Shown: positions 1 through 49,452 of the stretch, piece by piece
How the letters are laid out: every line of letters starts with the position of its first letter
Numbering within the stretch: the first letter of the stretch is position 1
Origin: Ruditapes philippinarum
Lineage: Eukaryota
NCBI RefSeq assembly: GCF_026571515.1
Contig: NW_026857880.1
Location: 1 to 64,000 of the forward strand
Direction: 5' to 3'
Length of the DNA stretch: 64,000 nt
The notes under the pieces: generated by a model
Database searches by the model: none
The model's input: only the letters and a program-made list of their open reading frames with translations
What the model was told of the DNA's origin: nothing
Made by a program: the position numbers and the translations under genes

Positions 1-138
1 GGGATTTCAATGTTAAAAAACAAAAATTGAGCTACATACATGTATGTACTAACAGTATAGAGCCTGGTCAGATAGAATGCATGTACAGGCCTGCCTGGCC
101 CTATACTTGTAGTAAAGGCTTAACACTTTAAGGGTTAA

Positions 139-445
139 AGAGACTCCACTGAGGTCTTAAAGCCTAAAACATAAAATTTGAATTTCTTACATTAATGAGC
201 TTGGGCACTTAAAACAGAAAGATATTCAAAGATAATTAAGAAATATACTGAGATATAATTTGAAAGTTTTTTCAATTTTGGGTCATTTTTAACAATAAAA
301 TTAACTATTCTGACAAAAACGAAGTGAGAAATTGATCTAAAATTTTTCACAAAGGCTATAGGTCTATACCTTCATGAAATGGAACATTAATCTTTGAAAA
401 ATAATTTCATTCCCGTCATGTCAAAAGAACCTCAGTCGAGTCCCT
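139..445. mobile_element. TTAA-flanked MITE (Kolobok-like AG..CT termini)
   Basis: ttaa|agagactccactgaggt ... acctcagtcgagtccct|ttaa; imperfect 17-bp TIR. Confidence 0.7.
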
Positions 446-498
446 TTAAAGTTACATATCAATATGTATTACAATAATATGAAACAATAATGCTATAC

Positions 499-3400
499 CC
501 GTAAGTCCAGTGGCTTCAGCTGTCTGAAATGATGCATAAGACATGAGAAAAAACAGAGCTGTCTCAAGAAGAGGGAACTCGCGGATCTTTGTATACTTCG
601 TTAATAATGCTGTCGCCATTCCAATCAGGGATCCAATCAGAAATGCCCCTCCAAATATACCAGCAAAGTTTCCAAGAGCTTTGAAAAATGCATGGACACT
701 GAATCCTGCAGATTTCTCCTTCCCATAAGCTTCCACAGAACTGGAATAAAGAATGAAGTTGTAAATTGATAAATTAAAGTTATATACCTATCTAAATATA
801 TATATATTGTCTACTGGTTTCTAATCAAAATACACTATAATTATTCTACCATCTGCAAATAAATACTGTGCAGAGTTAGCAGTTAAAAGAATGATGAACA
901 AGAAATATTCCTATTCTTGCCCTGTAGATTTTAAACTTGCATATAATAGAATAAAAGGCTTTTATTTTGTAGATGTGATTAATAAACCAAACAGCAATAA
1001 CTAACCCTTAACCTGCTAGAGCCTGAAGTGAGCCTTTGCCAACAGGCCAAAGGTCAGCCTGTACATCCATTCATTCTGACCAGGCTCTAAATTGATGGTA
1101 GCTCAATAGTTGCAGTTTGATATTGAAATTTCTAAAACTTTTAAATGGTCTGTTTTAAAAGCAAAACTCGGGGGAAAATTTTTTACAAATAAATTTTGCA
1201 AATTAAAGGGCTCAAAACAAATTTTTTTGTTAAATATTGACCAAAATTTTAAATTTTCCCAAAAATAATGATGTTTGAAAAAGTTTTGTTTTAAAATAAA
1301 ATGTGATATAAAAATTCCCCCAAAAAAAGATTTTTCTTTCAATAATCAAATTTTTTTTTTTTATAAAAATTTTTTAAATTAAAAAACCCCTTTTTTCAAC
1401 AATACCAAAAAATGTACCCTAATTGGGAAGCCCGCAAAAATTCACAAAAATATTAAACCAAAAATTTTATAAAGATGAAGACTGGAAAAAATAAATGATG
1501 ACTAATTACAATGTAAATGAAGAAATGAGAATAAATATAAAATAATGTGTTTCTCCTCTGGAGCAATTCCATCCGTCTAAATAATGTCATAAATAATGTT
1601 TATTCCTATGTCACAATAAAATGGTAACTAACTTGAGTCTTTGTTAAACTTCTGTTCTTTTCAAAGGTTAATTCCATGAACATGTATTTTTTTTTAACAT
1701 TCATTATATACACATAGATTAATGATCAGTTAAATCCATAGAAATAATAGGAATTGCTCAAAAGAAGATACATAAATACACATGGCAATGCATAAGCTAA
1801 GAAAAAGTAATTTTACACTGCAATTTTACTGTTTTCAATATTTCATAATAAAGATGTCAAAAATTATATTTGGTTAATGTAATTTTTATAATCATTTGAA
1901 TCTAAAATTGGGGAATAATATAAACTCTACCCATACATGATAATTAAAATGTGATCATGCAATGTTTGTCTAATGCAGCAGTCTTACACAAGCACTAATT
2001 TTTGGTATTTACTTCTTAACCTTTAACCTGCCGAAACCGAATTAGATCTGCCTTTACCAACCAGTATAAAACCAGGCTAGCATGAAAATCTGTGTTAAAG
2101 TCTGACAAGGCTCTATACTGTTGGTAATGGAATGGACTGTTCTAAATTCAAAGCAAGGCAAATCCATTTCACACACTCAGCAGATTTAAAGTTTATCTAT
2201 AGACATTATGTAACAAACAATAACTTCTTATAATTAAGGCACCAATTTCCATGGTTACAAGTATTGACAGGTCATAGGATAGGCTTACTACTGTGTATAT
2301 AGCAATCCATGGATGATAATTCAAAAATATTATTACATGTATATTCAATACAAAGGGAGATCATTCAAAAACCTAACTATAATATCAGTGTATATCATTT
2401 ACCATACAAGGGAGATAATCTACATTGTTTCAGAGTTTTTGGTGATTTCCTGTCATGAAGTATTTCTGGAACAATATATGCAGCTAAAGAATCAAAGAAT
2501 AAAACTTTAAAATATGATAAAAGTAAGTCAAACATAATCTCACAATATGATGTTTCAAGTACAGTAAATTGCAACTAGATGCAAATGTATACATGCCAAA
2601 ATAATCTATGCAACTTAATTTCCAATTCATTCTAAAATTCAAAAGCACAAAAAATATGCAAAATATTTAGCATGTAACAGACATCACAGGACTTTTCGAT
2701 TAATTGAATTTCGTGTGACATAATACTGCTACAGTCATGTGACAACTTTCAAGCTTTACCGTTGGATAGTGAACGTGGTCCATTTTTCCATGCATCAAGA
2801 ACAGTTCTGCTCTTCAATTGACAGTTTCATATACCAACCTTTATGAGGGATTCAATTTATCATTAAATAATCTTCTAATATTAAAGTGCAAATACTATTT
2901 ACCCAAGGTACACCATAATTCGAAGGTACTGTATTAAATTTTCACAGAGTGACCATACAGTTGTGTTTGTATTGCATGCATCAGTAAACAAAGTGACATA
3001 AAGATGCATCAAGACATGATAAATGAGGTCAAGCAGTGCTGTTTTCTGCAAAAGATGATGATGGATGATGAGAAAGACTACATTGATGATTAGGATAATG
3101 ATCAAGTTGATAATGATGCTGGTATAATCATGAAAGATTTGACAACCAATTTAAAAGCTAATGATGATTACACTCGATCTGTTTAAATTACTGATGGATG
3201 ACAACTATCATGATCATGATGACAGTACATTAATGATTAGGATTATTGCCTTACGCAGGTTATATAATGATAATGGCAATAAGAATAATGATGATGATGT
3301 TAATAATAATGATGATGATGATTACAGTGTAAACAATTTCAACTAGAACTATCACTAAATGTGATTAATACCCCCACAAGACTGCTTCGGAAATGAGGAT

Positions 3401-6400
3401 GTTACTAGTAACAGAATATCTTGTAAAAGAATTGAAATATAGAGTTATGGTTGTGGGCAATTAAAGATAGTTGTGGTTCTTGTATATTGCATTTCCTTTC
3501 AATGTGGTTGGCCATTGATGAAGTTTTATTGAATTACTCTGTAATAAGTCCAGAAAGACAAAAGAAAAGGAACAAAGGGCAATAACTCTACAAATACTGA
3601 AGATGGAGTTATAGTTCTTGTGCACTGCACTTCCTCTTTTTGTGCTTGACCATTGTATGAAGTTGTTTTGAATTTCAACCAGTACGTTTTAAGTTATGCT
3701 CCAGACAAGGAAAAGTATCAAAGGGCAGTAACTCTGTATTTTGTCAAAATGGAGTTATGGCTCTTATGCACTGCACTTCCTTTTAATGTCCTTGACAACT
3801 GTATGAAGTTGTATTGAATTCAAAACAGTAGTTTTCAAGTTATGCTCTGGACAAGGAAAAGTAACAAAGGGCAATAACTCTGTAATTTGTCAAGATGGAG
3901 TTATAGTTCTTGTGCACTGCACTTCCTCTCAATGTGCTTGACCATTGTATGAAGTTATAATGAATTCCAAAGGGCAATAACTCTTTAATTACTTTTGATA
4001 GAGTTATGGTTCTTGTGCACTGCACTTCCCCTTATTGTGTTTGACAATTGTATGAAGTTGTTTTGAATTCCAACCAGTAGTGTTCAAGTTATGCCCCGGA
4101 CAAGGAAAAGTAACAAAGGGCAGTAACTCTGTAATTAGTCAAGATAGAGTTATGGTTCTTGTGCACTGCACTTCCTCTCAATGTGCTTGACCAATGTATG
4201 TAGTTATATTGAATTCCAACCATTAGTCTTCAAGTTATGGTCCGGACAAAAGAAAGCAATGGAAAAGTAACAAAGGGCAATAACTCTGTAATTACTTTCG
4301 ATAGAGTTATGGTTCTTGTGCACTGCACTTCCCCTTATTGTGTTTGACAATTGTATGAAGTTGTTTTGAATTCCAACCAGTAGTTTTCAAGTTATGCCCC
4401 GGACAAGGAAAAGTAACAAAGGGCAATAACTCTGTAATTAGTCAAGATAGAGTTATGGTTCTTGTGCACTGCACTTCCTCTCAATGTGCTTGACCATTGT
4501 ATGTAGTTATATTGAATTCCAACCATTAGTCTTCAAGTTATGGTCCGGACAAGGAAAATGCAACAGACGTCTGGACCGACCGACCAACCGCCCGACCGAT
4601 CGACCAACCGACCACCGGGTGACTCCTATATACCCCCCCAAACTTCGTTTTTGGGGGTATAAAAATGTTAATAATGATCTGCAATACAAGTAAGCTTAAA
4701 CGATTACCACAATCAGCATTTCAATGAACAGGATGATGATAATAATGATGATGATGATGATGCCAATGATGATAATGATGATGAGTATTACTTCAGTATC
4801 ATGAATAAATCCAAATTATTAGTATTGGTCATTCAAAATGATAATGTAATTTCTAACTTACGATAAAGATATTGATCTAGAAAAATCACGACATTCATGT
4901 TGAAATCAATGAAATCGAATGATGAGAATGACACTGGTAATGATAAAGACATCATGAAATTCAGAGAGAAATGATGATAAAGAAAAATACAGGTGTTGAT
5001 ATTGTACCTTCACAATCATGTACACAGAACATCCATATCGTTCAACTTGTATGACAGGTGTTAATTTCAAAGCTTTGTGATCTAACATCCTTTGGATGCA
5101 TTCCCATGTGAGAGAATATGCTTAAATTCAGATGAAATTAGGTGCAACCTATGACACCTAAAGCCCTTATGATTTAATAACAAGCATAAAGTTTTTATAT
5201 AAATTGGACTTTGTAAATAATGAGTAAATGCAGGTATTTTTGTACACTTAATTAGATACGAATGAATTGGTGGTGTTCAACCTATCTCTGAAGTATTCCG
5301 ATGGACCTTTCTGGTGTTTACAGTTTTATATAAATTGGCTTACGTGTTATCCAATCGCTACACTGAGATAAAACATAGTCACTGGTTGACCTGGTTTGCA
5401 CAAAAGAACACGTGCTTATGTTTGTGATACTGTTTGTGAGCAGTTGACCTAGCAATGAATGGAAAAGGTGTGGCTAAATGTTCCGCTACGAAAAACCGGG
5501 AAGGTCCATCGTTTTCGCATATCTCAATTTGACACGTATTTTTATTGATTTTAATGTGATTTTAGTTTAACTTATACACATCATACATGTTATCTCAAAC
5601 TTTCCACATATTATGATTTTAATTGCCGTAATCAAATTATTTTCCTTTGAGATTATTTTGAGACATGGTGTCACGAGATTATCACAGATATTGACTATAC
5701 GTTTGTAAATTGTTATCGCCTCTCTGTTTGCTATGCCTTTTGTAATTTATTTGAAAACATTGAAAGCTTGTAATTTTGACATCAAAGTAAGACCGTTTCA
5801 TGAACGAGTCCCCTATGAGTCCACTTTTTACCAAAGTTTCTTCAACCTCGACTTATTGAAGTTCTACTGTACAGTCGACTCTCGTTATCTCGAAGTCATT
5901 GGGACCGTCCAAAAAATATCCAGATAACGAAATGTCGAGATAAACATATTAGGGTTAGATCAAGGCGAAACTGATTTTTACATAAGACATGTGCATACCT
6001 TATGTCAAATAACTATAGTATCCCAATGTCTTTGTTTTCATAGGCCTAGTCAATATTTAACAAAGTAACATAAGCGGATGTTTACCAGCGGAAATACGGG
6101 TGTCTGTGTTTAAAAAACACATAGTGAGGTTTACTCAATAATACACCAATATAGTGAATAGGATATCGGATATGGTTGATTCCGGATATCTTCCCGGTTA
6201 TTTATCGGGTTCTTTCTCGAGATTGTTCCAACGCTGATTGATTTGGTGGTGATTGTTGTGAAACAATATTGCAACGGTAGCTTTTCTATACTTTCACTAT
6301 TTCATTTACATTTAAAGTCATAATGAATTAATACAGTTTTCGAATATTTAAAAAGAATGTAAAATTCACTCATTTTGGACATAACTCAATCAACACGCTA

Positions 6401-9400
6401 AATAGATTAACTTTTATAAAAACAGCTAAACTTGTTACAAACATAATCGTCATTATGACGCGCGCTATTAATTGGGCAATTATTGTCTAGATTGCGTTTT
6501 TCACACGTCTGAAAGGAACAGACGAAGTCGAGATAAACAAAGGATAATAGTGTGAAAATAACTGTTGGGGCTGAAATTTTACATCGAGATACTGAAAATA
6601 TCGAAATAAAAATATCGAGATAAACAAATATTTCCAATATAGATAAAGAAGGAAGAAAATCGGGACTTTCAAAATTTCATCGAGATAACGAAATATCGAG
6701 AAAAGCGATGTCGAGATAACGATAGTTGACTGTATATAAAATTCTTTTTAAGCCTATTACATTTAAAACTCAATTTTTGATCATCCAAACAACTGATGAC
6801 AATGTTGTTTAACACTACTTTTCCCCTAAAATATAATGCATAAAATTCTATACAATTTCTTAAACCAATACTAATACATGCTTTACCCTTAGAAGAATTA
6901 ACACAAGCTAAAATGAGAAAAGAAACAAATATTTATAGATATAATTGAAAACCATTGTAAGATACCCACAACTGAACTGAAATATTCCATAACTCTTGCA
7001 TATAAACAGAGACAGGAATTATAATATCAGTCAAAAATATCCAAGGACATGTGAAAGCTTGAGTATGCAACAATTCCAGATAGATATAAGAAAGGCCCCA
7101 AGGATTGGAAGTTAGGATTTGTACACATGCTATGACATATAAAATAAAGACCTGCCTTTCTTCAAATGTTAACACCGACCTGTATAGAGAATGAATTACT
7201 AATTAAACATTCATGAATAATATAATTAAACTATGATCTTATATGAATTTACTTTTCCAGCACCATATTTCTTCATTTACTTTAATCAATGCAATATTTT
7301 TGGGCTAAAAATTTTATATGAGTAGTAAAGAGTAAAAAGCATTATGCTAATTCATTTACCTTGTACCTCAATTTCTTTAATTGACTTGATCAGCTTCTAT
7401 TTTTGGACCTGTCTATAATCAATTTAGGGGATATCAAGGTGAAAATTTTAAGTGAGTCAGCCAACAGTACAAAGCCTGGTCAGGCTGCATGGATGTGCAT
7501 TAAGTACTTCTGGCATTAAGTAAGTATATCACCCTGTCAGTTTTAGCAAGGTAAAAACTAATGAAATTGTAAGATTTGTTTATATAATGAATTAGTGTAT
7601 TATGGATTTTAAGGTAACTTTATTGTCATACTTTAAATCCAATCTAGATAATTTACCTCGACCTTCTACAAAACAAATTCTACAAAGATTCATTGACACT
7701 TGACCTTGTCACTATGCAGAAAATTTAATTACTATGAAAATACAGTCCGACCCCGGTTATTCCACAACCCTTTATTCGAATACCCGGCATTATCCGAAAT
7801 AGATCGGCGGTCCCGTTTTTTTATCTCTATATAAATAAATATTAATATGAGCGTATTATTCGAAATGCATTATCCGAATTCCCCCTATTTTTCGGAGTAA
7901 AATTTCAGTCCCGATTATACAATATTGAAAGAATTTCACACCTATTATTCGAAGCCAGCCTAAATATTATTCGAAGCCAGACTAATTGGCGCAGATCCAC
8001 TCGCTGCCCGGTCGACTTGTGAAAACTATCAACAGTCATGCATGTATTTAGATAATCAAGATAATAACTCTTTTGTATGTTCTTTAATCAACTTTAATTA
8101 CCGAAAATGAAAAGCAATGCACCGTATCCGATTTTGTTACTGTTATTGCTTGAAGATGACAGCAATAATTTTCATACATACCGTATATGTAAATTTGTCA
8201 AAACATCCAACACATTTTTTTCATTAATTGTAACGCTACATGAGAGCCTTTTTCCTAATCGAAAATACCAGAGTTTAGCTGTAAATACCGTAGTGACAAC
8301 TCGGCCATTATCAAGGCTTTGCGCGAAATGAAACGATACATTATGTTGAATAAAATGCAAGTACTTATGTCTTCAATGTCAATACAATAATTTTTACGCA
8401 TCTTTTTTAAATATTTTTTTCTCTAAATTGATTACAGGAAGTAAGTGTGTTGTAAACGGTAGTTTTGCTATGATTGGTCAAAGTTGAGTAGTTTTCGTCT
8501 ATCACAATAGTCCGATTTCGATTATTCGAACCCATCGATTAATCGAAGTAAATATTCAGTCCCAGGCACTTCGAATAAACGGGGTTGGACTGTATGCAGA
8601 AAAAAGGGAGCCTTTTATCATTATATGATTTAAACCTGACCTTAATGATGACCTGATGGTCATGTGACCTCAAACAGCCAAAATATAGAGCAAAATAAAT
8701 AGCAATATTTTGTAATAATGCAAATCAACATTCTTAAAGTAAAAGGACTTTTAAAAAAAACTTAATTATAATTAATATTCTTGTAACTTAAAATGACATG
8801 TAATTCAGAAAAAGAAGCTGCAATCATGGAAATGGAAAAATACATGTATATATTATAAGCACAGTAGGTAAGATATTTTACCACACCAGAAGGTATATGA
8901 AACAAATTATGATAAAAGTTGATTTGAATAACTCTTTGGATGCAAAGACAGATTCTGTATATACACAGAAAATATTTATCATTCATTAGAAACAAACATG
9001 GTATGTTCTTAAAACAAAACACCCCCATTCCAACCAAATGTGTAAAGGATGGTTTGGCAAAAAAATTATAAAAAACTAATGTCAATTGGGAAAAACATTA
9101 GGAATACGCTTAATACAGTAACATTCTTTAAGTACTTAATACAGTTACATTCTTTAAGTAGTCTTTAGATATTTTTCTAAATGTAAATTAACCATTTTCA
9201 TTAAAACATTAAAATACTATAAATATAAAATGATATTTATCTCTCATGAAACAGACTATATCTGATTACCTAATTTAAATTCAACAAGAGCTGTCCATAA
9301 GACAGTGCTCTTGACTATTCTCAGTGCTTGATAGAAAAGGGGCATTACTCTGTAAAAAGGTAATTTAAAATTATAGGACTTGTGCCTTTCATGTAAGATA

Positions 9401-12400
9401 ACCACAGAGAACAAGTGTGTGTGATTTTAACCATTCCCTCAAGTAGTTCTGAAAATACCAACTTGCACACAAAAATTTAACCAAAGTGTGATGCCGATGC
9501 CAACACCAGTTGAGTACAATTATAGCTCTCTCTATTCTCCTGCTAGGCAAGCTAAAAATATATAAATATGAAAGGTAAGCACTTCATAAAAATGGAATCT
9601 TTCCTTACCGTGATAGTACAATAGCTACATAAGGTAGAATCTTTCCTTACCCTGATAGAACAATAGCTACATAAAAGTGGAATCTTACCATACCCTGATA
9701 GGATACTAGCTACATAAAGATAGAATATTTCCTTAACTCGATAGTACAATAGCTACATAAAAGAGGAATATTTCCTTATCCTGATAGTACAATAGTTACA
9801 TAAAGGTGGAATCTTTCCTTACCCTGATAGGATACTAGCTACATAAAGATAGAATATTTCCTTAACTCGATAGTACAATAGCTACATAAAAGAGGAATAT
9901 TTCCTTTTCCTGATAGTACAATAGCTACATAAAAGTGGAATATTTCCTTACCCTGATAGTACGATAGCTACATAAAAGTGGAATATTTCCTTACCCTGAT
10001 AGTACGATAGCTACATTAAGGTAGAATATTTCCTTACCCTGATAGTACAACATCTACATGAAGGTAGAATATTTCCTTACCCTGATAGTAAAATAGCTAC
10101 ATGAAGGTAGAATATTTCCTTACCCTGATAGTACAATAGCTACATAAAGGTAGAATATTTCCTTACCCTGATAGTACAATAGCTACATAAAGGTAGAATA
10201 TTTCCTTACCCTGATAGTGCAATAGCTACATAAAGGTAGAATATTTCCTTACCCTGATAGTAAAATAGCTACATAAAGGTAGAATCTTTCCTTACCCTGA
10301 TAGTACAATAGCTACATAAAGGTAGAATCTTTCCTTACCCTGATAGTACAACATCTACATAAAGGTAGAATATTTCCTTACCCTGATAGTACAATAGCTA
10401 CATAAAAGTGGAATATTTCCTTACCCTGATAGTACGATAGCTACATTAAGGTAGAATATTTCCTTACCCTGATAGTACAACATCTACATGAAGGTAGAAT
10501 ATTTCCTTACCCTGATAGTAAAATAGCTACATGAAGGTAGAATATTTCCTTACCCTGATAGTACAATAGCTACATAAAGGTAGAATATTTCCTTACCCTG
10601 ATATCGCAAAAGCTACATAAAGGTGGAATATTTTCTTACCCTGATAGTACAATATCTACATAAAGGTAGAATATTTCCTTACCCTGATAGTGCAATAGCT
10701 ACATAAAGGTAGAATATTTCCTTACCCTGATATCGCAAAAGCTACATAAAGGTGGAATATTTTCTTACCCTGATAGTACAATATCTACATAAAGGTAGAA
10801 TATTTCCTTACCCTGATAGTACAATAGCTACATAAAGGTAGAATATTTCCTTACCCTGATAGTGTAATAGCTACATAAAGGTAGAATATTTCCTTACCCT
10901 GATAGTGCAATAGCTACATAAAGGTAGAATATTTCCTTACCCTGATAGTATAATACCTACATAAAGGAGAATATTTCTTTGAAAGCTACATGAAGGTAGA
11001 ATCTTTCTTTACCCTGATAGTACAATAGCTACATAAAAGTGGAATATTTCCTTATCCTGATAGTACGATAGCTACATAAAGGTGGAATATTTCCTTACCC
11101 TGATAGTATAATACCTACATTAAGGTGGAATATTTCCTATACCCTGATAGTACGATAGCTACATTAAGGTGGAATATTTCCTTACCCTGATAGTACGATA
11201 GCTACATTAAGGTAGAATATTTCCTTACCTGATAGTAAACATCTACATGAAGGTAGAATATTTCCTTACCTGATAGTAAAATAGCTACATGAAGGTAGAA
11301 TATTTCCTTACCCTGATAGTACAATAGCTACATAAAGGTAGAATATTTCCTTACCCTGATAGTACAATAGCTACATAAAGGTAGAATATTTCCTTACCCT
11401 GATAGTGCAATAGCTACATAAAGGTAGAATATTTCCTTACCCTGATATCGCAAAAGCTACATAAAGGTGGAATATTTTCTTACCCTGATAGTACAATATC
11501 TACATAAAGGTAGAATATTTCCTTACCCTGATAGTACAATAGCTACATAAAGGTAGAATATTTCCTTACCCTGATAGTGCAATAGCTACATAAAGGTAGA
11601 ATATTTCCTTACCCTGATAGTACAATATCTACATAAAAGTAGAATATTTCCTTACCCTGATAGTACAATAGCTACATAAAGGTAGAATATTTCCTTACCC
11701 TGATAGTGCAATAGCTACATAAAGGTAGAATATTTCCTTACCCTGATAGTGCAATAGCTACATAAAAGTGGAATATTTCCTCAACGTGATAGTACAATAG
11801 CTACATAAAAGTGGAATATTTCCTTACCCTGATATCGCAAAAGCTACATAAAAGTGGAATATTTCCTTACCCTGATATCGCAAAAGCTACATAAAAGTGG
11901 AATATTTCCTTATCCTGATAGTACAATAGCTACATAAAGGTGGAATATTTCCTTACCCTGATAGTACAATAGCTACATAAAAGTGGAATCTTTCCATACC
12001 CCGATAGTACAATAGCAGGGTTTGTACAGACATCCAATACCAAAATTCAAGCACTTTTAAGCAGGTTTTCCCATTTTTTCAAGCACATTTTGTTGCAAAT
12101 AATATCATTGATAACAAATGATAAAGTAACATTAAAACAGCCATAAAACATTGGAAACTTTAATCTTAACTACTAAATAACATACATTGTACATAATGTG
12201 ATATTTATGTATTCATGTATAGTGCAGCTAAATTATTCCTGTGTGACCAGCAAATTTAATTCATATCATTGTTTATTGATTTTGGTACTAAGTTTGATAA
12301 TTGGGTTTTTTTTGTATTTTTTGTAAACTGTTGATTTTTACCGACATGATCTCGTTTGATCATTTTCAAGCATATTAACAACAAATTTAATCACTTTCCA

Positions 12401-15400
12401 TTAAATTATCAAATTCAAGGACTTTTGAGCACTTTTTTCATTTTTATTTTTAAGCACTTTTGAAGAAAGGGACTCAAAATTAAGCATTTTTTAAGACTGT
12501 ACAACCCTGAATAGCTACATAAAGGTAGAATCTTCACTTACCCTGATAGTACAATAGCTACAGCATCATTGAGAACACTCTCCCCAAACACCAGTGCATA
12601 CAGTGTTACATCCACATTTAAATCATTGAATATCGCCAACACTGTCACTGAAAAACAACAGCAGCAACATTATCTGACAAATGCCACTTTTTAAGGTATC
12701 ACAGATTCAACATAATTTTACATTAATGTCAGGTTTCCTGTATCAAAACATATAATACTTAAACTGGTTAGGTCCACAATGGACACATTTTCTACAATTA
12801 TTTTTCAAAATATTGATAAACAGTAGAAAAGTATCAATCGGACATTCTCATAAAAAGTTATTCATAAATATAAAGTTCTAAGAGATAAAAGTTATAAGTG
12901 ACTTAGAATGAACAGTTATATGATGAATAATAATATTTTATTTCAGAACATTTTATTATCTGCTATATAAATAGATATTATATCAGATCATGTATCTCAC
13001 ACTTGACAACATCTTACATATATGGTTCTTTCGTGGTTTTTTCTTATGCCTGATACTACTTTCCACATAATTATTCATTGTATTGCAGACCTTTCATCAC
13101 AGACCAATTCACTTTAACAAATTTCTTAATCATACATTTGTAACACAAGAGGGTCATGATGGCTCACCTGAATATAAATACTCTTAATTAATATTGTAAA
13201 CTATAAATGAAAGCAGATATAATAATAAAATCTTAATTTCAAACTGATATCAAAAAGTTCATGCTTGCATCTGAAATTGTGCACATGTGAAATAACATTA
13301 CTGGCTGCTATTGTTAAGGGAAAACAATAGTTACTAAATAAGGCACTGGTTGCTATACAAAATCAATGGTTTCCTTGGAAGTCAGTGCCTGCTATAAAAT
13401 TCAATGGTACAATCACTCTTTGCTATGTAAAAAGTCAATGTTTGCAATGACAGTCACTGGTGGTTATGGAAATTTTCAGTTTGCTATGAAAAGTCTATGG
13501 CTGCTATGATATCAATGGCTGCTGTGGAAGTAAATGCTTAGTATATATGGAAACCAATCAGTTGCCATGGAAGTCATCAATTGCCATGGAAAGTCAATGA
13601 ATGCTATGGAAAGTCAATGTTTGCTATGTGAAGTCACTGTTTGCTATGGAAGTTTATGGTTGCTATGGAAAGTCCCTGGTTATTTTAGAAGTCCATGGTT
13701 GCTATGGAAGTCTATGGTTATTATGGTAAGTCACTGGTTGCTATGGAAATCTCTGGTTACTACGTTAAGTCACTGGTTGCTATGGAAGTCACTGGTTGCT
13801 ATAGAAGATACTGGTTACTATTGAAAGTCAATGGCTACAATGGGAGTCAATGGCTACTATAGGTTGCTATGAGAAGTCACATATAAGGAAAATCTATGTA
13901 ATGAAAAAGAAATATGCTTACCAGGATCAGTGGCTGATATAATTGCTCCAAAAAAGAAACAGTCATTCACTGTAAATGTCATAGGCAGAAATCGTGTGAA
14001 TGCAAACATCAAACCACTGTAAATGAATAACAAATATTCTATAATATTACCGTAACCATTAGCTGATTGTCCTTACAAATGACATTTAAACGATGTTACA
14101 AACTTGTATTATTTCAAGGTCATGTTTTAAGGTTGTTTTCTATTTACATAATTATAGCCCTTATCTTGAGCATTTAGTTATATATGTTTACAAAAGTAAG
14201 TAGATCATATAACCTGTCAAAATAATTTATGAATAATAATACAAATCTACATTAAGAGGTTCCATTTACAAATATATTGTATATTGAATAAAACAAATGA
14301 AGTGTATTGGCTACCTACCCAACAGCCATACATGATACAGTTGTTCCAATAAATGCATACATCACAATGGCTCCAAAATTTTTGAAAAAGTGCCTCTAAA
14401 AAATAAATGAAAATATTGTGATATTGTGATAAGGTTGTAATGAATCCAGCTATAAATAACCATAAAATATAAACTTACTTTCTCAGACAATAATAACAAG
14501 ATCTCTAATTAAAAACATCTTATTTCTTAAACAAGAGCTGTCAGTAGGACAGCAACGCTCGACTATTCTTAGTGCTTGATAGTAAAAAAAATGCTTGATA
14601 CAGTTACCTCCTCCTGTTTACAGGTTGGGGTCATGATGGTGAACAAGTGTGCAAAGTTTCAAAGCCATATGTCAATGGACTTTGAAAATATTTGAACTAT
14701 TACAAAAACTTTAACGTAAATTCTAAGTCGAAAAAGGGGCATAATTCTGTCAAAATGCTTGATAGAGTTACCTCCTCCTGTTTACAGGTTGGGGTCATGA
14801 TGTTGAACAAGTGTGCAATGTTTCAAAGCCATATGTCAATGGACTTTGAAAATATTTGAACTATTACAAAAACTTTAACGTAAATTCTAAGTCGAAGAAG
14901 GGGCATAATTCTGTCAAAATGCTTGATAGAGTTACCTCCTCCTGTTTACAGGTTGGGGTCATGATGTTGAACAAGTGTGCAAATTTTCAAAGCCATATGT
15001 CTTTGGACTTTGAAAATATTTGAACTATTACAAAAACTTTAACGTAAATTCTAAGTCGAAAAAGGGGCATAATTCTGTCAAAATGCTTGATAGAGTTACC
15101 TTTTCCTGTCTACAGGTTGGGGTCATGATGGTAAACAAGTGTGCAAAGTTTCAAAGCCATATGTCAATGGACTTTGAAAATATTTGAACTATTACAAAAA
15201 CTTTAACATAAGTGGTTACGCCGACGCGGACGCCGACGCTCGGGTGACTGCAATAGCTCTACTTATTCTTATCGAATAGTCGAGCTAAAAAGGATAACAT
15301 TTGGAAAAGTGATTAGTTTTGTGTTAATCAAGTATGAATTTTCATCTTCCAGTAGCCATAAATGTTCTAAACATGCTAAAGGTAATTTCTTATTGAATGT

Positions 15401-35599: not shown

Positions 35600-37930
35600 A
35601 AAATGTTTTGGAACTTTTTTAGGATTGTATAGCACAACCAAAGTCAGCCATTTTTAGTCGACAAATAGATGCGTTGTACTGGAAAGAGATTTGAACAACT
35701 AACTTTAATCTGATACACTTGGCAAGTGATTATAAAAAATGTTAAAGAATTACCTGTCCTTCCATTTCACGCATAGATTGCGTGCGCAATAAAATGACGC
35801 AGTTTGACAAAAAAGTCAATGTTTTCAGTCTTAATTTGTATTCTAGCTTGGGCATGGAATGTTATTGAATGTATTTAAAAAATCTTTCAGAATATAGGAT
35901 TTTTTTATAGGGAAATGAATGATTAAAATTTAGATATGTGGAATATCACCGGAATTGTCGTTTGCTTAGCTTCAATTTTGTACGGTGTTGGCGGTATTAA
36001 TTTTCTTAATGGTAAATACAGGAATGTTAATATTGTTATCCAAAACACTGTTGCTGAGAACGAGGTTCTAATTGAACGAATTAAGGTAATAATATGTTAA
36101 TACAAGTATTAGTTTTATATAAATGTAAATGTTAGATGAAAAGAAAAGTGAAACCTTGAATTAAAAGTAACTTATTTAAATATATAAATCAAACTGCGTG
36201 AATGGAAAATTTGCCTTTAACAAAACCACTTTCGTCACTGAATGAGAATTTAAAAAGAAAGGGGGAAAGACTGCACTACATTGATAGCTGATTATATTAG
36301 ATATATTTCCTTTTAAACTATATGGAAGATAATAAAACGCCTCTTAATGTTTATGTATATATCTCTTTTGAATATTTATTCATATAACTTGTAATTTATA
36401 AACACTTTCTCATAAATAATTTCAAATTTACCAAAAATAAAACTACATAAAAAAGATTATTCATACTATAATAAATCCTAGAAATCGATAACAGAAACGT
36501 GTTCAGTGAAAATAATGAGGCCTTTCTTTGCTTTTTAACTTAGCTGACTTTGTTTTCAGTTATTTTGTTAATTAAAAATATTTTTCTTTTGATCTGATGC
36601 CTTACCTTTACTTGATAAAGGATACACGCTAGTTTAGTCTTATTCCACGAAACTTTGGAATCTGACCATTTTATTTCTTCCTAAAAAATTAAAATGTACT
36701 TATGACTGAGAAATTCAATAATTAACATAATTATTTGAATTTTAACAAATACAATTATACATATTTTGTAGTCAAATTTTTAATATTTTGATAACGAATT
36801 CTTAAAAAAAATTTATTCTAGGAATTACGATTGTAGAGCACAACCAATGACAGTCATTATTAGTCGATCAATGGATATATTGTACTGGAGAGAGTTTCAA
36901 CTTATTTAAAATCTGATACACTTGTCAAGTGATCATTAAGTTTAGATATAGAAAGTCCTTAAAAAATACCTGGCCTTCCATTTCATGCATGCATTGCATG
37001 ATCAATAAAACGACGCAGTTTGACAAAAAAACCTCAATATTTTCAGCCTTTATTTGCATTCTAACTTTGGGCATGGAGTGTGATTAAAAATCTTTCAGAA
37101 AAAGGAAACTGATTTTTTTATAGGGAAATGAATGATTAAAATTAAAATATGTGGAATATCGCCGGAATTTTCGTTTGCTTAGCTTCAATTTTGTACGGTG
37201 TTGGCGGTATTAATTTTCTTAATGGTAAATACAGGAATGTTAATATTGTTATCCAAAACACTGTTGCCGAGAACGAGGTTCTAATTGAACGAATTAAGGT
37301 AATAACATAATAAAAATTATATTAGTTGTGTATTAATGTAAATGTTGTTAGATAAAAAAAAGGTAATAATTATATGTTAATACGAGTATTAGTTTAATAT
37401 AAATGTTGTTTAATGAAAAGAAAAGTAAAACATTGAACTAAAAGTAAATTACTTAAATATTAATCAAACCGCGTGGACGAAAAGGTATAATTTCAACAAT
37501 ACCTCTTTTGAAACTGAATGAGAAGTTAAAAAGAAAGCGGAATACTGCACTACATTGATAGCTGATTATATTAAATATGTTTCCTTTTAAACATTTTGTA
37601 TATGAAAGATAATAAAATGCCTCTTAATGTCTATGTATATATCTTTTTTGAATAATTTAAATTCTCTTTCTCATAAATAATTTCAAATTTAGCAGAAATA
37701 AAACTACATAAAAGATTATTTATACTTTAATCAAACTTAGAAATCGTTAACAGAAACGTGTCAAGTGAAAATAGTTAGGCCGTTCTTTGCTTTGCTTTTC
37801 ATTTAGCTTACTTTCTTTTCAATGATTTTGCAAAATTTCAAAAAAAAAAATCTTCTTCTATTTGATCTTATGCCTAGCCTTTGCTGAATAAAGGGTATGC
37901 TATTTTAGTGTTATTTCACGAAACTTTAGA
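35600..37930 (+). repeat. ~1.2-kb tandem duplication containing the CLCA first coding exon
   Basis: Copies at ~35600-36660 and ~36810-37930. The ATGs at 35936 and 37149 are 1213 bp apart, and the 150-nt exons differ at 3 positions. Confidence 0.92.
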
Positions 37931-40900
37931 GGATGATTTAAAAAATAAACGAACGAAGGTAAATCAGAACTGTGTATAAGTTACTTGCGCTTAAATTGAC
38001 CTGAAATAACAAAAAGTCAAATTCAGTTTACTCGACAGCGAAATCTGTGACCCTTATTTTTTTTTCACAGAAATTGCTTATGCTATCATATTCTACAATC
38101 ATGCAAAGATTGAATGTAACCCATTTTGCAACTTTCAATCGGCCATATCTCTATAAGTGACCTCAGCATATGTCTTTGATACTAAACTTTTGAGCTAATA
38201 TTTCCAATATACAGCTGCCATACATAATATTGATTTTAAGTTTATTAAAACCATTGATATTATGGTTACCAAAGTGGTAGCGAGAAACCCTTATTTTTAT
38301 GTATGACTTCAGCAAATTTTTACCAACGCATCTCAGCTCCTTTTCGAAGCGACACGGTACCAAGTGTCTTTTGGACAAATTAACATTATTATACCCAATA
38401 CATGGAGCTCGAAACCAGAATATCAGGAGATACCCGCTCTGTCCGAGTTAGACTCTTACATCACCGTCGATGATGGAAAGGTTAAAATGCCTCATACTAA
38501 ACGCAAGAGAAAGAAGTGCGGCTCATCTGGGCGTTATATCTTCTTACCGGAAAGCTTTTTATTGGAAGAAGGGAAAACAAAATATGGACACCATGGTAAC
38601 TATGTACAATAAGGATACAGGTTTGCTTCTTTAAAAAATAAGCATGCGAGAGGTCTTTTTGCTGCTGTGGTTCGATAATATTTGGGAATGAATTACAATT
38701 ATTTAATAGAATAGAATTTATTAAATATATTGAATATAGTATCATAATGAAAATTTGTTTTACACTTCATTTTTTAAAATGTTTTGAAAGATTATATGCC
38801 GGAGAAATTGACTTTTTTTCTTGGCTCAAAAAGGGATATCTGTTCAACAAAGGGAACTTGTATCATAGTTTGGGGACCTTTCTGTTGAAAATGTGTCAGA
38901 GTTAAATCATATACATATAAATGCACAGCGAGTTAAATGGAGTGCGGATATCAGTTACCCGCACTCCGGAGCATGTCCATTGATTGGCTCATTTTTGCTG
39001 GGGTTTACTTATAGTGACGGCAGAGAAAGGGAAAACGACAGAAATATCATATTCAGATGCTCGTTCATTGGTTCCTTTTTTCTGGTGTTTCATATTGTTA
39101 CAACAGGGAACGTGTTTTATGTTTGACTATGATACAAAAGAGAAAGAACATCAAAACAGTCGGCAATCTCATTAATACATGGGGGCTACGCCCCTCATAC
39201 AAATCAGATAGCCTCATGTTTCGATGCTCTTTTTATTACTAAATTTGAAATAAATGATATATATATAGTCATTTATATATATAAATATATATAAAATATA
39301 TATAATATATATTTATTTTATGCTTTTCAGTGGATTACTGATTTATCCGTGAAAATTATATTTGATAATTTCACAGTGAAAATTATCAAAATATAATTTC
39401 ACTTTTTTCAACGACGAAACTACTTTTTAAAGATTTTCCCCATGTGGTACCTCAATTTTATTTTTACTGATAATTCTGACAATATCAGACTGTTAAAAAA
39501 ATAGCAAAGCTGAAATAGATAAATAACTTAAATGTTAAAAGTAATAAAGAGAGAAAACTTACTTCTATTCCTTCAAATTCCAATCACAAAATTTCGTCTC
39601 TAAATTTTTTTGTTTTGTTTTTACAGTCTGAAAAATACATTCCTTCCCCATGCTAAACTGCTCTTGATGACATTTGGGCATATTAAAGTATCCTACGAGC
39701 AATAACTGCCGTATGCTTTATGAAAAATTGAAAAGCATTGACAGCCATCACTCGTAAAATAAGTAAAACAACCCAGCGTTCCTTACAATGCCTTAGCAAG
39801 CTTCCAAGTTTTCCATTTTCCTAGCTCCTTTTCTGAATGTTTTCACTTCTGTCAACACTTATTTTTTGTCTGTTATAATCTTCAAATAAGTTTTCTTTCT
39901 TTTAAAAAGGTGTATGACTAACAAATCCAAATTATATCCTTCTGAATCTTACACAATTATTTTCCTCCCATGAAATACACAACTTTAAAAAATGGCTGCC
40001 GCTTACATTTTACAAAGCCAGGTCTAATATAAATTCGCAGTAAGTAACAGAAATATGGATGGATGGTTGGACTTTTTCTCCTACAAGAATTGTTTGTTTT
40101 TATTATTAAAACAAGCGATCATTCATATTTTTTTAATAAAATGAATAAATATCACCGTCATTTAACCTTGATTGGCGGACTTATTTTTCAGCTCAAGACT
40201 TCTTGTTTTTAATGAGAAATTCCCTCCAAATGGGGCTCTCAATGGGGGAAACAGATTTTAATATTAACGTTAAAATTATGGAAATTTCGTTTTAACTTGT
40301 TTTAAAGTATAAAATAAAAAGAAAATTTGTCTGTTTGTTGTGTAAGATGTAATTTTATTTCATCTCGTGAACTTTAAAAACAATATTCTCACTCGTGGCT
40401 ACGCCACTCGTGAGAATACTGTTTTTAAAGCCCACTCGATGAAATAAAATTTCATCTTACACACAAACAAACAAATATCCTCTATATGATAACATCTCCT
40501 TTCGGTATAGACCGGAATATTATGGCTTGAGGGCAACTGTTTACGGCGGCAACGAGGCCCTGCGGACTGCAGTTACTCGAGAGCTAGATATTGATGTCTG
40601 TTACGTTTACAACTGTATTCATAATGGCAAAATGACGTCATCCTTAGAACGCAGGTTTAAAAAAAAGCGCATGGGAATAACGTCATTGAAAGCACGTGAC
40701 TTGACAGGTTTTCCTAATACAGTAAACAGTAGATAATCCTGTTTGATATGCAACAAATAATTGTTGTCTTCAAATTATCATTAAGGAAACTAACGCTATA
40801 AATAACTGATTTTTTGAATACTTAAGCCCATTTATATCTGAAACATAGAGTTAGAGCATGTCAAATTTAGGCTTATGTACAGACAATGCTACATTTATTT

Positions 40901-43900
40901 ATAACTTGTGTTTAAATTTAGACTTTTTCTCAGAATGAATTTTTCTAACGTATTATGCTATTTCATAAAGCAAACGTTGTGGTTCATGAGTGGGGTCATT
41001 TGAGATGGGGACTATGGGATGAATACGGAATAAAGAAAAATGGAAGATTTTACTTAAAAGATGGTGAATGGAAGCCTGTAGGGTAAGATCATTTCTATTG
41101 AACCAACGTATATCCCTTTTATGGGTATAAAACTGGTGAAAGATTTCGTACATCATTAGTATTTGCTTCAATCAAAGTGCATGCCAATAGCTAGGACATC
41201 ACACGGCCTGTGCACATATAATAGACGAAAGGCAATTTCAACTACATTAAATCGTGATACTGCGAAAAACGATTGCCAAACCCCACAAAAAATTAATTAT
41301 TGGATATATTTTAACTGTCTGTTTTGTTTTACATATCCAGATAAAAATGAGTTCAATATTTAAAGAAAATTTTAACATACAATCAAAATCTGGCTATATA
41401 AAATTTAATGCAATAATGGTTATTTATGTTCTTTTATTTATTATTCTCGAACAAATGCTTACAATTAATTATTCATATTACAAATGTTTGAAATAGATGC
41501 AGTGCGCAAATTACGGGTAAAGTTGGCAGAGGATCACAATGCACTCGAGGGATATCAAAATGTGACATTTCTAACACTGAAACAGTTATTAATGAAACTT
41601 GCAAGTTTTGCCCTGATGAATCACAACCAATATCCAACATGAGCTCCATAATGGCATTTAATTGGCTTGATGCGGTATGTGGTTACACCTTTTCGTGGCA
41701 TGATGCCTTGATAAATGCTCTCAATCTCCACTAGTCTTTGGTTCTTTGCATTGTCTTTTACAACGTTATCAACCTAGATATGTCTGTACTTTAACGAAAT
41801 GATGTTTCGTTTTCCCATTGTTCTTTTATCATTTTTTTCCCTAAATTCGTTACCAGGTAGACAAAAAAACTATCGTCATGTACCCTTTCTTTTTAAAAAG
41901 ATAAAACATTGACCCTTTACAGGGCAAATAGGAGTTATGAATTCAATTTAAATACTAATATCACGAAATTACTGATTAAATCTGGTTGACATCTTTAGCC
42001 GATGCCTCAAGATGTCTTTTTTAGTTTGATCATTCAATAATATATTCCGGCCTTTGAAATAATAAGAATATCTTAACTAATTTTAAAAAGTTTTCTTAAG
42101 ATTTGCATGTAACCGTACATGTGTATTTAAATATCCCACACTTTCCTTGAGGGAAATGTTCTATACTTCCATTGTATTTGCATGTCTCAGGTTGTTACTT
42201 TCTGTGATCGTGAGAATGACACAAGTGTTCCTGTTCACCAAAGACACAACAGTAATGGCAAGAGTAAACAAAATTTGAAATGTAAAGGCCGTAGTTCCTG
42301 GGAAGTAATGAGGGACCATGAAGACTTCAGATCAGGTCATCAAATTTATATACGTGCAGCTACAAATTGTTTTTTGTTGTTTTACAAAACTCTTTTAGGT
42401 TATAGCATAATACCGTTTTATTCTTATGAATGCATTGTAACCAAACAACATATCTACTCTGCGGTTAAAAGGAACTGAGGTTTTTGACATGACATGACTG
42501 GGAATATTTGCAGAGACTTGTGTATAATTTGATGTAGGTCTGGAAAAATTACCTGTGTGCAAAATTTTGATATCGTGCTCTCCCTTCCCCACCCCGTCTT
42601 TCCAAATTAATCATTTTTGTTATACAAAGTGACACAAAAATGAATAGTTTTGCATTTTGAGTAGATGTCTTATTTTCCTTTGTATACTTTTTCCATTTGA
42701 AATGATTTACTTGATCTATTTAAGAATTTCAAAGTTTACGTTTTAAGTCATTTGAACCCCAGTGGAGCTCCTTTAAATTTATCATTCTTGCTTTCAACGC
42801 TTCTATGAAATAATTTGAAATAATTTGCTCATCTATATTAAAAGTTCCCCGAACTGGGCAAGTTAAAAAATTTGTTCTCTTTTGTGGGGTTTCACTGGGA
42901 AAATTTCTTTTTTCCACACAAGGAAATTTAATTTTTTCACTCTTCATTAAAAGCTCCCATATGGAAAAACATGTTTAAAAAAAAAATATAAACCAAAAAA
43001 CAAAAAGGGAAAAGGGGGTCATCCAAACAAAAATAAAAAAAATGAAAAATGTTTTGTTCAAGAAAAAATTTTAAATTTTTTTAAACCCAATTAATTAATT
43101 TTAGAACTCAACTATATTCCTTTAAAAAAAACTTTGTTTTAAAGGTTTAATTTAACATATTTTTATTTTTTTTTCAGAAAAAACCCTTTTTCCAACATTT
43201 AAAACAATTTTCCAACCTTTGGGCTGTTACAAGAAACTGTTGGGATATCGTGTTTTGTATTTGAAAGTTTTTGGAAATATGAAATTTTTTTTAAAATGAA
43301 ATTTTTTCATTTCAAAATAAACCTTTCTTTTAATTTTTTTTTAAAAAAAACTAAAAAATTTAAAAAAACTTTTTCCCAAATTTTTTTTCAATTATTAAAT
43401 TTTTTTAGGTTTTAAGACTAACCAAAAAAGGTACAAGAAGTTCGTAAAATTACCAAAGAAAAATAAACCCCACAAAAGTTGGCTTGGCATTTGGTTTTAT
43501 TTTAAAACAAAAGCTGATCCCCTTTTAAAAAAACCCTGAAAGCCCAAATAAAGTCTCACAAGATAGAGATGATATGAAAATTGAAGTTAAATTGTCGCAA
43601 ATGGTGGTACTTGTATTGGATGTGGGGTAACGACTGCTTTACGGTATGTTTTTTTAAAAACTCCCTTTTTCCCATATAAAATAAAAAAATAACCCGTTGA
43701 ACCCAAATTAAAGCAGCTTTTTTTCGTCTGATTCAAAAAATTTTTAGGAAAAAGGGGCCTGTTTTTTTTACCAAAACCTTTACATTTAGAAAACTTGAAA
43801 ATTTTAAAAAACCCTTCGGGGAATTGGGCTGTCCAAAACTTAAAACAGTGAGGATCAATTGCATAATTACAAGATGAAAAACAAAGGATAATTGAATGTC

Positions 43901-46900
43901 AATAAAGTTTTCTTTTAAGTCCAAGGGCAAATTTCAAGTCGGAAATTTTAAAATTTAGCTTTTTTTTCTTTTTTTAGGTTTTTTTTTTCACCTGATTTTA
44001 AACCCCAGAGAAATTAAATATCAATTTAATCTTTGTATCACTAAAATTGCTTATAGTTTTGGAAAAGAAATTTTAATACCCCAAAATGAACTTTTTAAGT
44101 TATTTTGACTTGTATCCAAAATGGTTTGCAAAATAAAAAATTTTTAAAAACTCTTTAAAAAGAGCTTTTTACTTGAAAAGATTTTATTTTCGATTTGTTA
44201 CCTGTGTTAAAATGTGGAAACGGAAAACATAAGCAATTAAATTAGCTATATTTTATAATGTGTTATCATATTCTAAACTAGCTTCGAGTTTATAAACGCT
44301 TAACAAAAGCGCCTCGTACTCCGATGAAATGTCTAAAATTATTTTTTAAAATATTTGAATTGTCAATTTGACATTTTAAGAAAAATGATTTGCACATTAT
44401 TTACTTTGTATAATATATACATAGCAATATTCGTTTAATTTAAAGAAACTATGGTAATTCTGAGATGAATGATGATAATAGATATTCGCGAAAACTCGGA
44501 AGTTAATGTCTTATATGAATGTATGACTTAAAGCTCGATATATTTACTGCTTAATAAATTATATTATCCGAAAAGCATCAGTGACAGCTTCGTGCATTTG
44601 TGAAATGTTTGCTGTATAACAGCTGCATAGTGTTATGCTAATTCAGCAACATTCTTCCAGAGAATTCCCCTCTTTGTTTTAACCGGATAAAGAAGCAATC
44701 TTCGACCATTGTTGTAAAAGGCATAAAAACTATTTCGTGTTTTTCATAATGTATGTACACGAGACAATAATTTTATCATATACCCGTATAATTTGCAAGC
44801 ATATAATGCCCGCTGATTTCAATTTTTTAACATTACAACAATAAAGGCACTGGTGATCTTTAAAAAATATCAAGCATCATCAAGTTTAGTGCAGGTGATA
44901 TACACAATTAGATTTGTAGTTGACAATTTGTTGAGCATACATTTATGTGGTTATTATAGTTGCTAACGACCAAACTTGGCGATCCTGCCGGATCAGAGAT
45001 TATAGTGATATCAGATGGTCAAGATGGTTACGCAAGTATCCTCGATAGTGCAATACAAGATGCTGTTGACACAAGTGTAACTATACACAGTATTTCAGTA
45101 TCACAAAATGCGGATACCCGAATGATATCGATGGCAATCCAGCAACAGGTGGCAGCCATATCTCTCTTATCTTGAGGTTGGAAACAATAAGCATTGCCTC
45201 AGCATTTACGGAAATAATTGTCCAAAGTTGCAGTAAACATCGTTTGCCACAGAAATCAGGTCAAACGGTTTAAAAGTAACAACAAAAAAAGGCTTGTTAA
45301 AAATTAATTTCAATTATTGATTTAACGAAACAGATCCAAGTAACTGACAACATTTGTATTGAACAAAGTAAAAGAATTTCTAAAATGCGTTAAAGACAAT
45401 AAAATTTGAATATAAAGATAATATGTGTTTTTAATAAATTTCAATATTTGAAATTGGAAATTAAAACAGATTTTTAAAATTTGTAATTTTTGGATTAAAC
45501 ATTGGATAAAGCCAAAAAATCAACATAGTGGTCAATAAACTGAATAAAATAAATTTCGCCTTTTTTAAGATAATGGCAGAACAGTTAATACCGCTGGATT
45601 ATCAAAATAACATACAGACAAGTTTTGATTATAGACAGGCAGCATAGGAAATAGGTACCTCTGTAAAGCGATATACTTCAAGGGCAGCTCCAAGCGTTTT
45701 CTGAAAGGTTTGATGTCACAAGTCCGGATGGAACTGTTTATACAAAACAAACTTCTGACGACAATGTTGTTTTGGACATACCTGGTACAGCCATTGTAAG
45801 AAACTTAACTTATAGTCGTTTACCATGAAAATACCATAAAACACAAAACATATAAAAAACCGAACTTTCTTGGTACTCTATGTAAAAATATCTGCGTCTA
45901 TGGTATTTTATCATATTTGATATGTTTAATTAATTCAAATTTTATAATTTCCTTATATTTTTGCATATTAATGAAGCAAATGTATATGTATACATGAACT
46001 CGTCAATGTGAGTACACTTACGTCATGAGTACACTTACCGAAACATGACAGCTTTAATTAGGATCATATATTGCAGTGTTTTCTAGATCTAATTTTTAAA
46101 TGCTTTGGCAAGACTTCAAAATAATCTATGCAAATAAATACAGTTTAACCTCGTCCGAGTATCTTTTTTAAAGATTCTTCTTTACATATTTCAAGTTGTT
46201 CAAACATCCATTTACTGTCACATACATCTATGCACGTTTTAGATCAGGATTAAGATGGTTAGGAACTTCCCTGATAAAACTAATTCATTTTGTCATGATA
46301 GGCCGGGCAATATAATGTTTCCATTGAATCAAGCACGTCATCTTTGGAGCTTTACGTTACATCTTTACCTACCGACGCGGAGGCTGTTCGTGTCTCTTCA
46401 TGGATATCTCCAGTGGATTTTGACTTTTCCTCTGGTGAATTACCTGTTGTTGAAGCCGACGTAATGAAAGGAAGAGCGGCTGTTTTAAATGCGATTGTTA
46501 CAGCACTTGTGGAAACATCAGCTACTAATGATTGTACAATTTCATTACTTGATGATGGGGCAGGTTCGATTTTATCATATTTTTAATGCTAAATTGTTAT
46601 GTTAGTTGACCGTTGTGACAATTTGTCAATTAGCAATACAAAACGTCAATTAGCCATGTAAATAGAAACAAGTTTCTTTTATCACGAAACATGAAAAGCT
46701 TTGAATTTAAATACCAATCTGCGCCTAATAATGGAAGTGAACAATAATAGTAAAACATTCGACCGATGCGCAGGAAAATTATACCAATCTAACACGTACA
46801 TGATATTAATTTAGAAAAACAATATTTCGTCACTTGGATGAGTTAGTTTTGTTCAATCCTTCAGATCCTGATGATACGTCTGATGATGGGGTATATGCCG

Positions 46901-48561: not shown

Positions 48562-49452
48562 ACTGTGAATTCGGCAGCAGGACAAAAGGGCCCCCTCAAT
48601 AGAAAAAACCCATTGAAAAAACCCTTTTTATCTGTCCCCCCCACGAACCCCTGTAAACGAAGAAGGTTTTCCCCGTCGTCACAACCCTTTAGACTATTTT
48701 CCGAAAAAAAACAAAAAATTTTTTGGGGCTGCCCTCGTTTTCTTCAGAGCCAATAAAAAATAACTCTCCCGGGAAAAACGGAAGCATTTGGAAAATTTTT
48801 AAGTCACCCGGGTTTGTTTTAAATTTTTTGACATGTTTTAAGGGGGAGAATAATTTTCCCTTGACGGGAAAACACCCCAGATGATGACAATGGAACTTAG
48901 TTCAGAAATTTATCACACATTTGGTAAATTTAAAGTGATACCCTGCTCACTTGTTGGGGAAAGCCAAAAAAAGAAAAGAGTCAGATGTTCTACCAGGAGA
49001 AATAAGTGAGGAAAGGCTATCTCCAAAAGGGGTTTTACAAAAAGAAAAGTAAAGAGGGTAATTTCCCAAACATGGGCCCCCAAAACTTTAAAAGTCAAAG
49101 GGGTTCATGGGGGACAATCAGCAGAAGGGGAAAAAATGGTAAATCCAATGGAAATAAAAGCGAGAATTTTTTTGCAGTGCTGATTTTCCTTTTCCGGGGA
49201 AAAAATTTCAGAACAGAGCTACAAGATGATCGGAACGGTGAATCAACTGAAAATTTTGCTGTAGCTGCTGAAACTCTAAGTTCACACGACACCGGCAAAT
49301 CAAAACCGAAAAGATTCAAATTTGAACGACATCAAGAATATTTTGATGAAAGGTCCATGACAACTTCAAATTTGTCGCTCGGATTTCCAGTTTTTGATTC
49401 GGGCAGAATGAGCAAAGAAATAAGCAAGATGTATGAAGATGTGTGCCCCTAA
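48562..49452 (+). CDS. Possible terminal exon (cytoplasmic tail) of the CLCA gene, partly garbled
   Basis: Acceptor ttcacag at 48561 follows a donor at 48315. An open frame in the cleaner 3' part ends at 49452. The middle is homopolymer-garbled, so frame continuity cannot be shown. Confidence 0.35.

Follow-up and report, generated by a model that had tools for sequence, protein, structure and literature searches.

How does a gene keep its authentic 5′ splice site in use when the following intron carries dozens of copies of that same site? The question is raised by a Na+/H+ exchanger (NHE) gene of the clam Ruditapes philippinarum, which lies on the minus strand of the 64,000-nt stretch analysed here (contig NW_026857880.1, positions 1 to 64,000; hereafter, the window). 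The intron that follows its coding exon 6 contains a 43-nt tandem array, which is real and is a junction-born minisatellite derived from the gene's own exon 6/intron boundary. We suggest that the first donor wins through its position, the size of the exon that it closes and its pairing with U1, with nonsense-mediated decay (NMD) clearing the rest, and that the array is probably a neutral passenger.

All readings of the array refer to the minus (transcribed) strand and to window positions. Tandem Repeats Finder places the 43-nt array at 9595-12016. Split into units from 11978 down to 9588, the main minisatellite comprises 56 units, 51 of which are exactly 43 nt long and the remaining five 29-44 nt. 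Each unit joins the terminal 21 nt of exon 6 to the initial 22 nt of the intron. The initial annotation had described about 55 copies of this exon end with its 5′ splice site, and the consensus of the 56 units is indeed the unit that it proposed. The template of the repeat is copy 1 (12521..12563), the authentic exon end and donor AGG/GTAAGT (the slash marks the splice boundary; the intron starts at G 12541). The array consensus differs from it at 4 of 43 positions, which upholds the junction-born origin put forward earlier. There are 34 distinct variants among the 56 units, and the 43-nt units are on average 94% identical to the array consensus and 85.5% identical to the true junction at 12563-12521. 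Both features of a junction minisatellite are thus present: the first unit lies across an authentic exon/intron boundary (donor 12541), and the splice-donor consensus is reiterated downstream, with G/GTRAG kept in 46 of the 56 units. On the transcribed strand this motif occurs 46 times in the 2431 nt of the array, against none on the opposite strand of the array; outside it, there is no occurrence in the 8844 nt between the array and exon 8 and there are three in the 14,660 nt upstream. The enrichment is far beyond chance. Of the 16 exon boundaries of the gene, donor 6 alone has copies in the window.

The internal order of the array speaks about its history. Blocks of units are duplicated (units 11-14 equal units 28-31, and units 34-37 equal units 44-47), and the 3′ edge is the most diverged part, with 4-8 differences per unit in units 49-56 vs 0-4 in units 6-48. 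Such block duplications together with a diverged 3′ edge are typical of tandem-array turnover, as described in the accessible part of the report on amphioxus mirages (PMC3087553). The full 43-nt unit with AGG/GTAAGG is found in 38 of the 56 units, in agreement with the earlier statement that the copies read mostly GTAAGG and the true donor GTAAGT. At position +6 the 51 43-nt units have G in 48 cases and A in three; the T of the true donor occurs in none of them (0/51), which speaks against recent conversion involving array and junction and leaves the suggested role of the array as a gene-conversion template for the exon end unsupported. Two further tandem arrays, with units of 146 nt and 164 nt, lie in NHE introns (3556-4558 and 14588-15211), and neither copies an exon boundary of the gene.

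The source of the repeat could be fixed by rebuilding the gene. In a protein search the downstream exon matched a RefSeq protein of Ruditapes philippinarum at 100% (XP_060597483.1, P0002), and eight minus-strand exons (27574-27316, 18182-17965, 15563-15486, 14395-14319, 14016-13922, 12647-12542, 7179-7156 and 740-499) rebuild this protein with 0 differences in 366 residues. Coding exon 6 (12542..12647, 106 nt) ends in ...AVAIVLSG, and coding exon 8 (499..740) has its acceptor at 741, so exon 6 as the source exon and the acceptor at 741 are both as first annotated. The product matches Pfam PF00999 at 152 bits; its best PDB matches are NHE6 (E 8e-95) and NHE9 (E 2e-87), vs about 1e-23 for NHE3 and NHE1. 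By homology, the gene is an endosomal-type exchanger of the NHE6/7/9 group, closest to NHE6 and NHE9. The VAIVLS stretch encoded by the copied 21 nt is conserved in all 24 homologues listed; the copying therefore went from gene to repeat. Both Ruditapes RefSeq models (P0002 and P0028) splice from the true donor. The second of them carries exons 3 onward and 245 further residues on a contig of 20,665 nt, where 5600 nt are left if its introns equal those of the window; this is at most a hint of a shorter haplotype. A degenerate pattern for the exon end, used to look for the orthologous intron in metagenome contigs, gave 0 matches.

Between the authentic donor and the main array stands a transposon. 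Copy 2 of the unit is split into a 5′ part (12510..12520), which ends with the target duplication CTATT, and a 3′ part (11979..12015) with the degraded donor GGG/GTATGG at 11999. The insert (12016..12509, 494 nt) has imperfect terminal inverted repeats of 13-14 nt, starting from CAGGGTT, and is flanked by the 5-nt target duplication CTATT. Excision of the element together with one target copy regenerates a 43-nt unit. Since the element splits copy 2 and the donor of this copy is degraded, the nearest decoy left intact lies at 11956, 585 nt beyond the true donor. The decoys are therefore not directly downstream of the real donor, as had been thought, and the copies beyond the authentic junction number 57 (the interrupted copy 2 and the 56 units).

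No second copy of the element is present in the 64-kb window. Contig depth on its subterminal parts is 562-1268 in run X1 and 3827-6534 in run X11, vs 5-26 on the exon-6 bins, and reads depart at 12502 into other flanks; hence the element belongs to a high-copy dispersed family. Other copies seen in the reads terminate slightly differently, which suggests that the window copy has diverged at both termini. Inverted repeats, a target duplication, short length and dispersed copies characterise it as a non-autonomous DNA transposon of the miniature inverted-repeat (MITE) type. According to the consulted part of PMC12730594, a 5-bp target duplication is a feature of hAT5, and CA..TG termini with 2-5-bp duplications are features of the CMCT clade. 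The element shares the 5-nt duplication with the former and the CA..TG termini with the latter; as it has no transposase, its superfamily, judged from termini and duplication alone, would fit hAT5 and the CMCT clade alike.

We next consider whether the array might be largely an expansion or artefact of the assembly. Parts of the window look error-prone (e.g. 1100-1500), five units are of odd length and no listed contig spans the array. Against this, the 34 unit variants stand in an ordered block structure. Reads of four of 24 runs were compared with positions 11890-13500, with about 4% and 6% sampled of two RNA runs (X21 and X23). Contigs of X1 (possibly the source sample) are identical to the window over 12209-12633 and 11952-12202 and confirm both transposon junctions. 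In X11, which comes from another study, a contig reaches from exon 6 to 12526 with 4 differences, and four tandem unit-to-unit joints are seen, three of which have joint motifs absent from the array of the window. Summed depth in X11 is 262-312 on array bins vs 24-26 on exon-6 bins, which is not a copy number; none of the listed X11 pieces crosses the transposon insertion. The related units of X11 probably represent a different allele, with another locus as the alternative. Taken with the exact X1 matches, the tandem joints and depth in X11 make an artefact extremely unlikely.

Are the copies able to function as donors? Their strength was estimated with a U1-duplex energy, a crude proxy based on the U1 5′ end and not a trained splice model. 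It gives −10.8 kcal/mol for the true donor, −9.4 for the commonest decoy and −5.6 to −11.6 for the other donors of the gene. By this proxy the decoys seem usable as donors, though less strong than the authentic one. The initial annotation had assumed that the proximal donor is the stronger one; this holds for the commonest decoy and fails for two short units (donors 11269 and 11228), which read CAG/GTAAGG and score −11.5. These two units may be one-base assembly slips. Read-through past the donor at 12541 meets an in-frame stop at codon 279 of a protein that in relatives has about 700 residues, which confirms the immediate stop noted earlier. A product truncated by the use of a decoy would be a target of NMD by established rules.

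A few percent of the transcripts might nevertheless use the first intact copies, or a 16-nt cassette within the unit, and be sent to NMD, in which case NHE mRNA would fall with copy number. The copies resemble competent donors, ATGTAG opens 55 of the 56 units, and its pyrimidine-rich TAG sits 16 nt before the donor of the unit. The tract before this TAG has 9 of 12 pyrimidines, vs 8-11 in the seven acceptors of the gene (two of the windows displaced by a base or two). The available text of PMC1557585 reports use of the nearest pseudo-sites in human 6-16 and CBS, and that of PMC5954066 the retention of one unit in ABCA7. In the clam, however, the nearest pseudo-site is eliminated by the transposon along with the degradation of copy 2, the 16-nt cassette breaks the frame, and no convincing branch point is visible by eye (none was computed). 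From the two RNA runs 1191 and 389 reads were placed, nearly all of them from dispersed repeats; X21 reaches a depth of about 2-3 on exon 6 and about 1 on the array bins, and X23 has 0 on both, too shallow for counts of decoy use. Joints or loose ends at donors are absent among those listed, in a stretch without a downstream acceptor and at an exon-6 depth of 0-3. We consider such leakage quite improbable.

What was regarded as a single 11.8-kb intron is in fact divided by a 24-nt in-frame microexon (7156..7179, minus strand), supported by the RefSeq protein and by homologues. It adds SVLTFEES, has an AG acceptor and a weak GC donor (AAG/GCAGGT), and when included it splits the intron into 5362 and 6415 nt. 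It lies between the array and exon 8; junctions from array donors might lead to 7179 or to 740. An insert of eight residues at this site occurs in 10 of the 27 fetched homologues covering the region, its carriers being both Ruditapes models, seven of eight Mercenaria isoforms and the Dreissena representative. The eighth Mercenaria isoform skips it, which makes the microexon, to judge from these models, an alternative exon in one relative or more. Its occurrence in proteins of Mercenaria and Dreissena, set against array units that are 94% alike, makes it likely that the microexon predates the array. The start of the microexon peptide (SV....ES/AS) resembles that of the following exon (SVEAY), which gives it the look of a partial duplicate.

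The microexon gives the array a conceivable target. The more copies the array has, the more U1 or splicing factors it might load, and microexon inclusion (or intron retention) might shift accordingly; alleles of different array length would then produce different ratios of NHE isoforms. Intronic decoy splice sites are reportedly associated with intron retention (PMC6097662), which counts in favour of such a modifier. The microexon is skipped in a relative, and its donor is among the two weakest of the gene (−5.8 by the U1 proxy), with the array 2.4 kb upstream. The X11 unit junctions, three of four with letters absent here, fit allelic variation. A precedent is the ABCA7 intron 18 tandem repeat of variable copy number (VNTR), whose 25-bp unit starts with the exon-18 donor and whose length correlates with skipping of exon 19 (De Roeck et al. 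2018; PMC5954066, as far as its accessible text goes). On the other side, the microexon likely predates the array, and in the F7 minigenes described in the accessible part of PMC1557585 splicing is unchanged by adding or removing repeats. Nor is there any excess conservation of the donor cores: variants number 6 in the 6 donor-core columns vs 24 in the 31 other columns (p=0.62), a weak test that detects no conservation of the cores over the rest of the unit. We therefore hold a length-tunable modifier unlikely. In a more elaborate version the transposon would have insulated the true donor and so let the 56-unit array expand, the array acting as a copy-number dial on the GC-donor microexon; this is very unlikely in our view. 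The same applies to its second part, that each unit offers an acceptor-donor pair as a ready substrate for new microexons, which we strongly doubt.

The regulatory roles proposed initially (a U1-binding array, an effect through NMD, protection from premature polyadenylation) have thus gained no positive evidence, as the donor cores are not detectably conserved and the array contains no polyadenylation hexamer. Neither AATAAA nor ATTAAA occurs inside the array, which leaves the polyadenylation role unsupported; five such hexamers are present in the 494-nt transposon.

Hence, we favour a junction-born array that the first donor outcompetes, and propose the following sequence of events.

Step 1: Copy 2 would have arisen when slippage or unequal crossover duplicated 43 nt across the junction. 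This duplication would have preceded the insertion, because the transposon could land in copy 2 only once the unit had been duplicated.

Step 2: The transposon with terminal inverted repeats would later have inserted in copy 2.

Step 3: Further unequal exchanges would have amplified and homogenised the downstream units. In the present gene the authentic donor would close the 106-nt exon and pair best with U1, and the 691-nt exon that the first intact decoy would give (vs 106 nt for the authentic exon) would be disfavoured, as expected from the F7 work and from exon definition. A rare decoy product would stop at codon 279 and be removed by NMD. With the decoy products cleared in this way, the array would therefore cost little.

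Several observations weigh against this explanation. The commonest decoy beats six of the seven other authentic donors of the gene by the U1 proxy, and the two short units exceed even the true donor. The selection test has low power (30 variants, in units that are not independent). RNA at an exon-6 depth of 0-3, like the RefSeq models, would miss rare or NMD-degraded products. The data on donor scanning are mammalian, not molluscan, and even among human genes the nearest pseudo-sites are partly used in 6-16 and CBS (PMC1557585, in the part available), and the repeat length of ABCA7 alters skipping of the next exon (PMC5954066, likewise).

How does the clam array compare with systems described before? 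Minisatellites whose first unit lies across an exon/intron boundary are listed, in the accessible part of PMC1557585, for human F7, 6-16, CBS intron 13, lamin B2 and PDGF. The best studied case there is the F7 intron 7 VNTR with a 37-bp unit (Borensztajn et al. 2006): in minigenes the most upstream donor was used exclusively at any repeat number, unless the copies were made perfect consensus sites. The F7 type and the clam array share the boundary-spanning first unit and the donor reiterated down the intron. Main or sole use of the most upstream donor characterises the F7 type in that text, while the clam array is known from its sequence. The clam array differs in having 57 extra copies vs 4-25, in copies that deviate from the true donor (G or A for T at +6), in its transposon spacer and in residing in a mollusc gene. 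The amphioxus mirages (Adh3 and globin genes) are boundary duplications with cryptic splice signals, with splicing reported undisturbed in the portion of PMC3087553 consulted. Like the clam array, they are invertebrate and minisatellite-like, with a homogenised centre and diverged edges; unlike them, the clam array belongs to another phylum, has another unit length and has more copies than the 3-6 of the globin gene. The transposon spacer of the clam is unmentioned for the mirages in that portion of the text. ABCA7 resembles the clam array in that the unit carries the donor of the upstream exon and the next exon is alternatively skipped (for the clam, in its relative Mercenaria); its unit, in contrast, begins at GT without an exonic part, and a length effect has been measured in it (PMC5954066, same extent). 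According to the available part of PMC10078293, tandem repeats associated with splicing are frequent in humans. Judged by its unit and its position, the clam array belongs to the published class of exon/intron-junction minisatellites, and this locus is new to the class. Among the literature matches listed, from a search whose coverage leaves subscription journals outside, none concerns the clam locus or the microexon.

Other features of the window deserve a short description. At 53996-59662 on the minus strand lies a multi-exon gene whose 905-codon frame has a P-loop (GEAGSGKST) and, further on, a leucine-rich stretch; it resembles a NACHT/NLR-type immune gene. Exon-like frames at 38307-47597 on the plus strand carry an HEWGHLRWG motif and a vWA-like stretch, and resemble a gene for a calcium-activated chloride channel regulator (CLCA). 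Near-identical translated stretches at 35927-36343 and 37146-37623, about 1.2 kb apart, suggest a local duplication. The regions 1100-1500, 43000-43900 and 48600-49200 are rich in long homopolymers and look like unpolished long-read sequence.

With the clam array, a peculiarity known from other animals is now also seen in a bivalve, and its 57 pseudo-donors make it a large natural case in which to ask whether the first donor wins outside mammals too. The transposon spacer and the alternative microexon downstream make the locus a usable test case. Should array length be found to tune the microexon, the locus would be an invertebrate splicing VNTR of the ABCA7 kind, located in a gene that regulates pH in a farmed clam.

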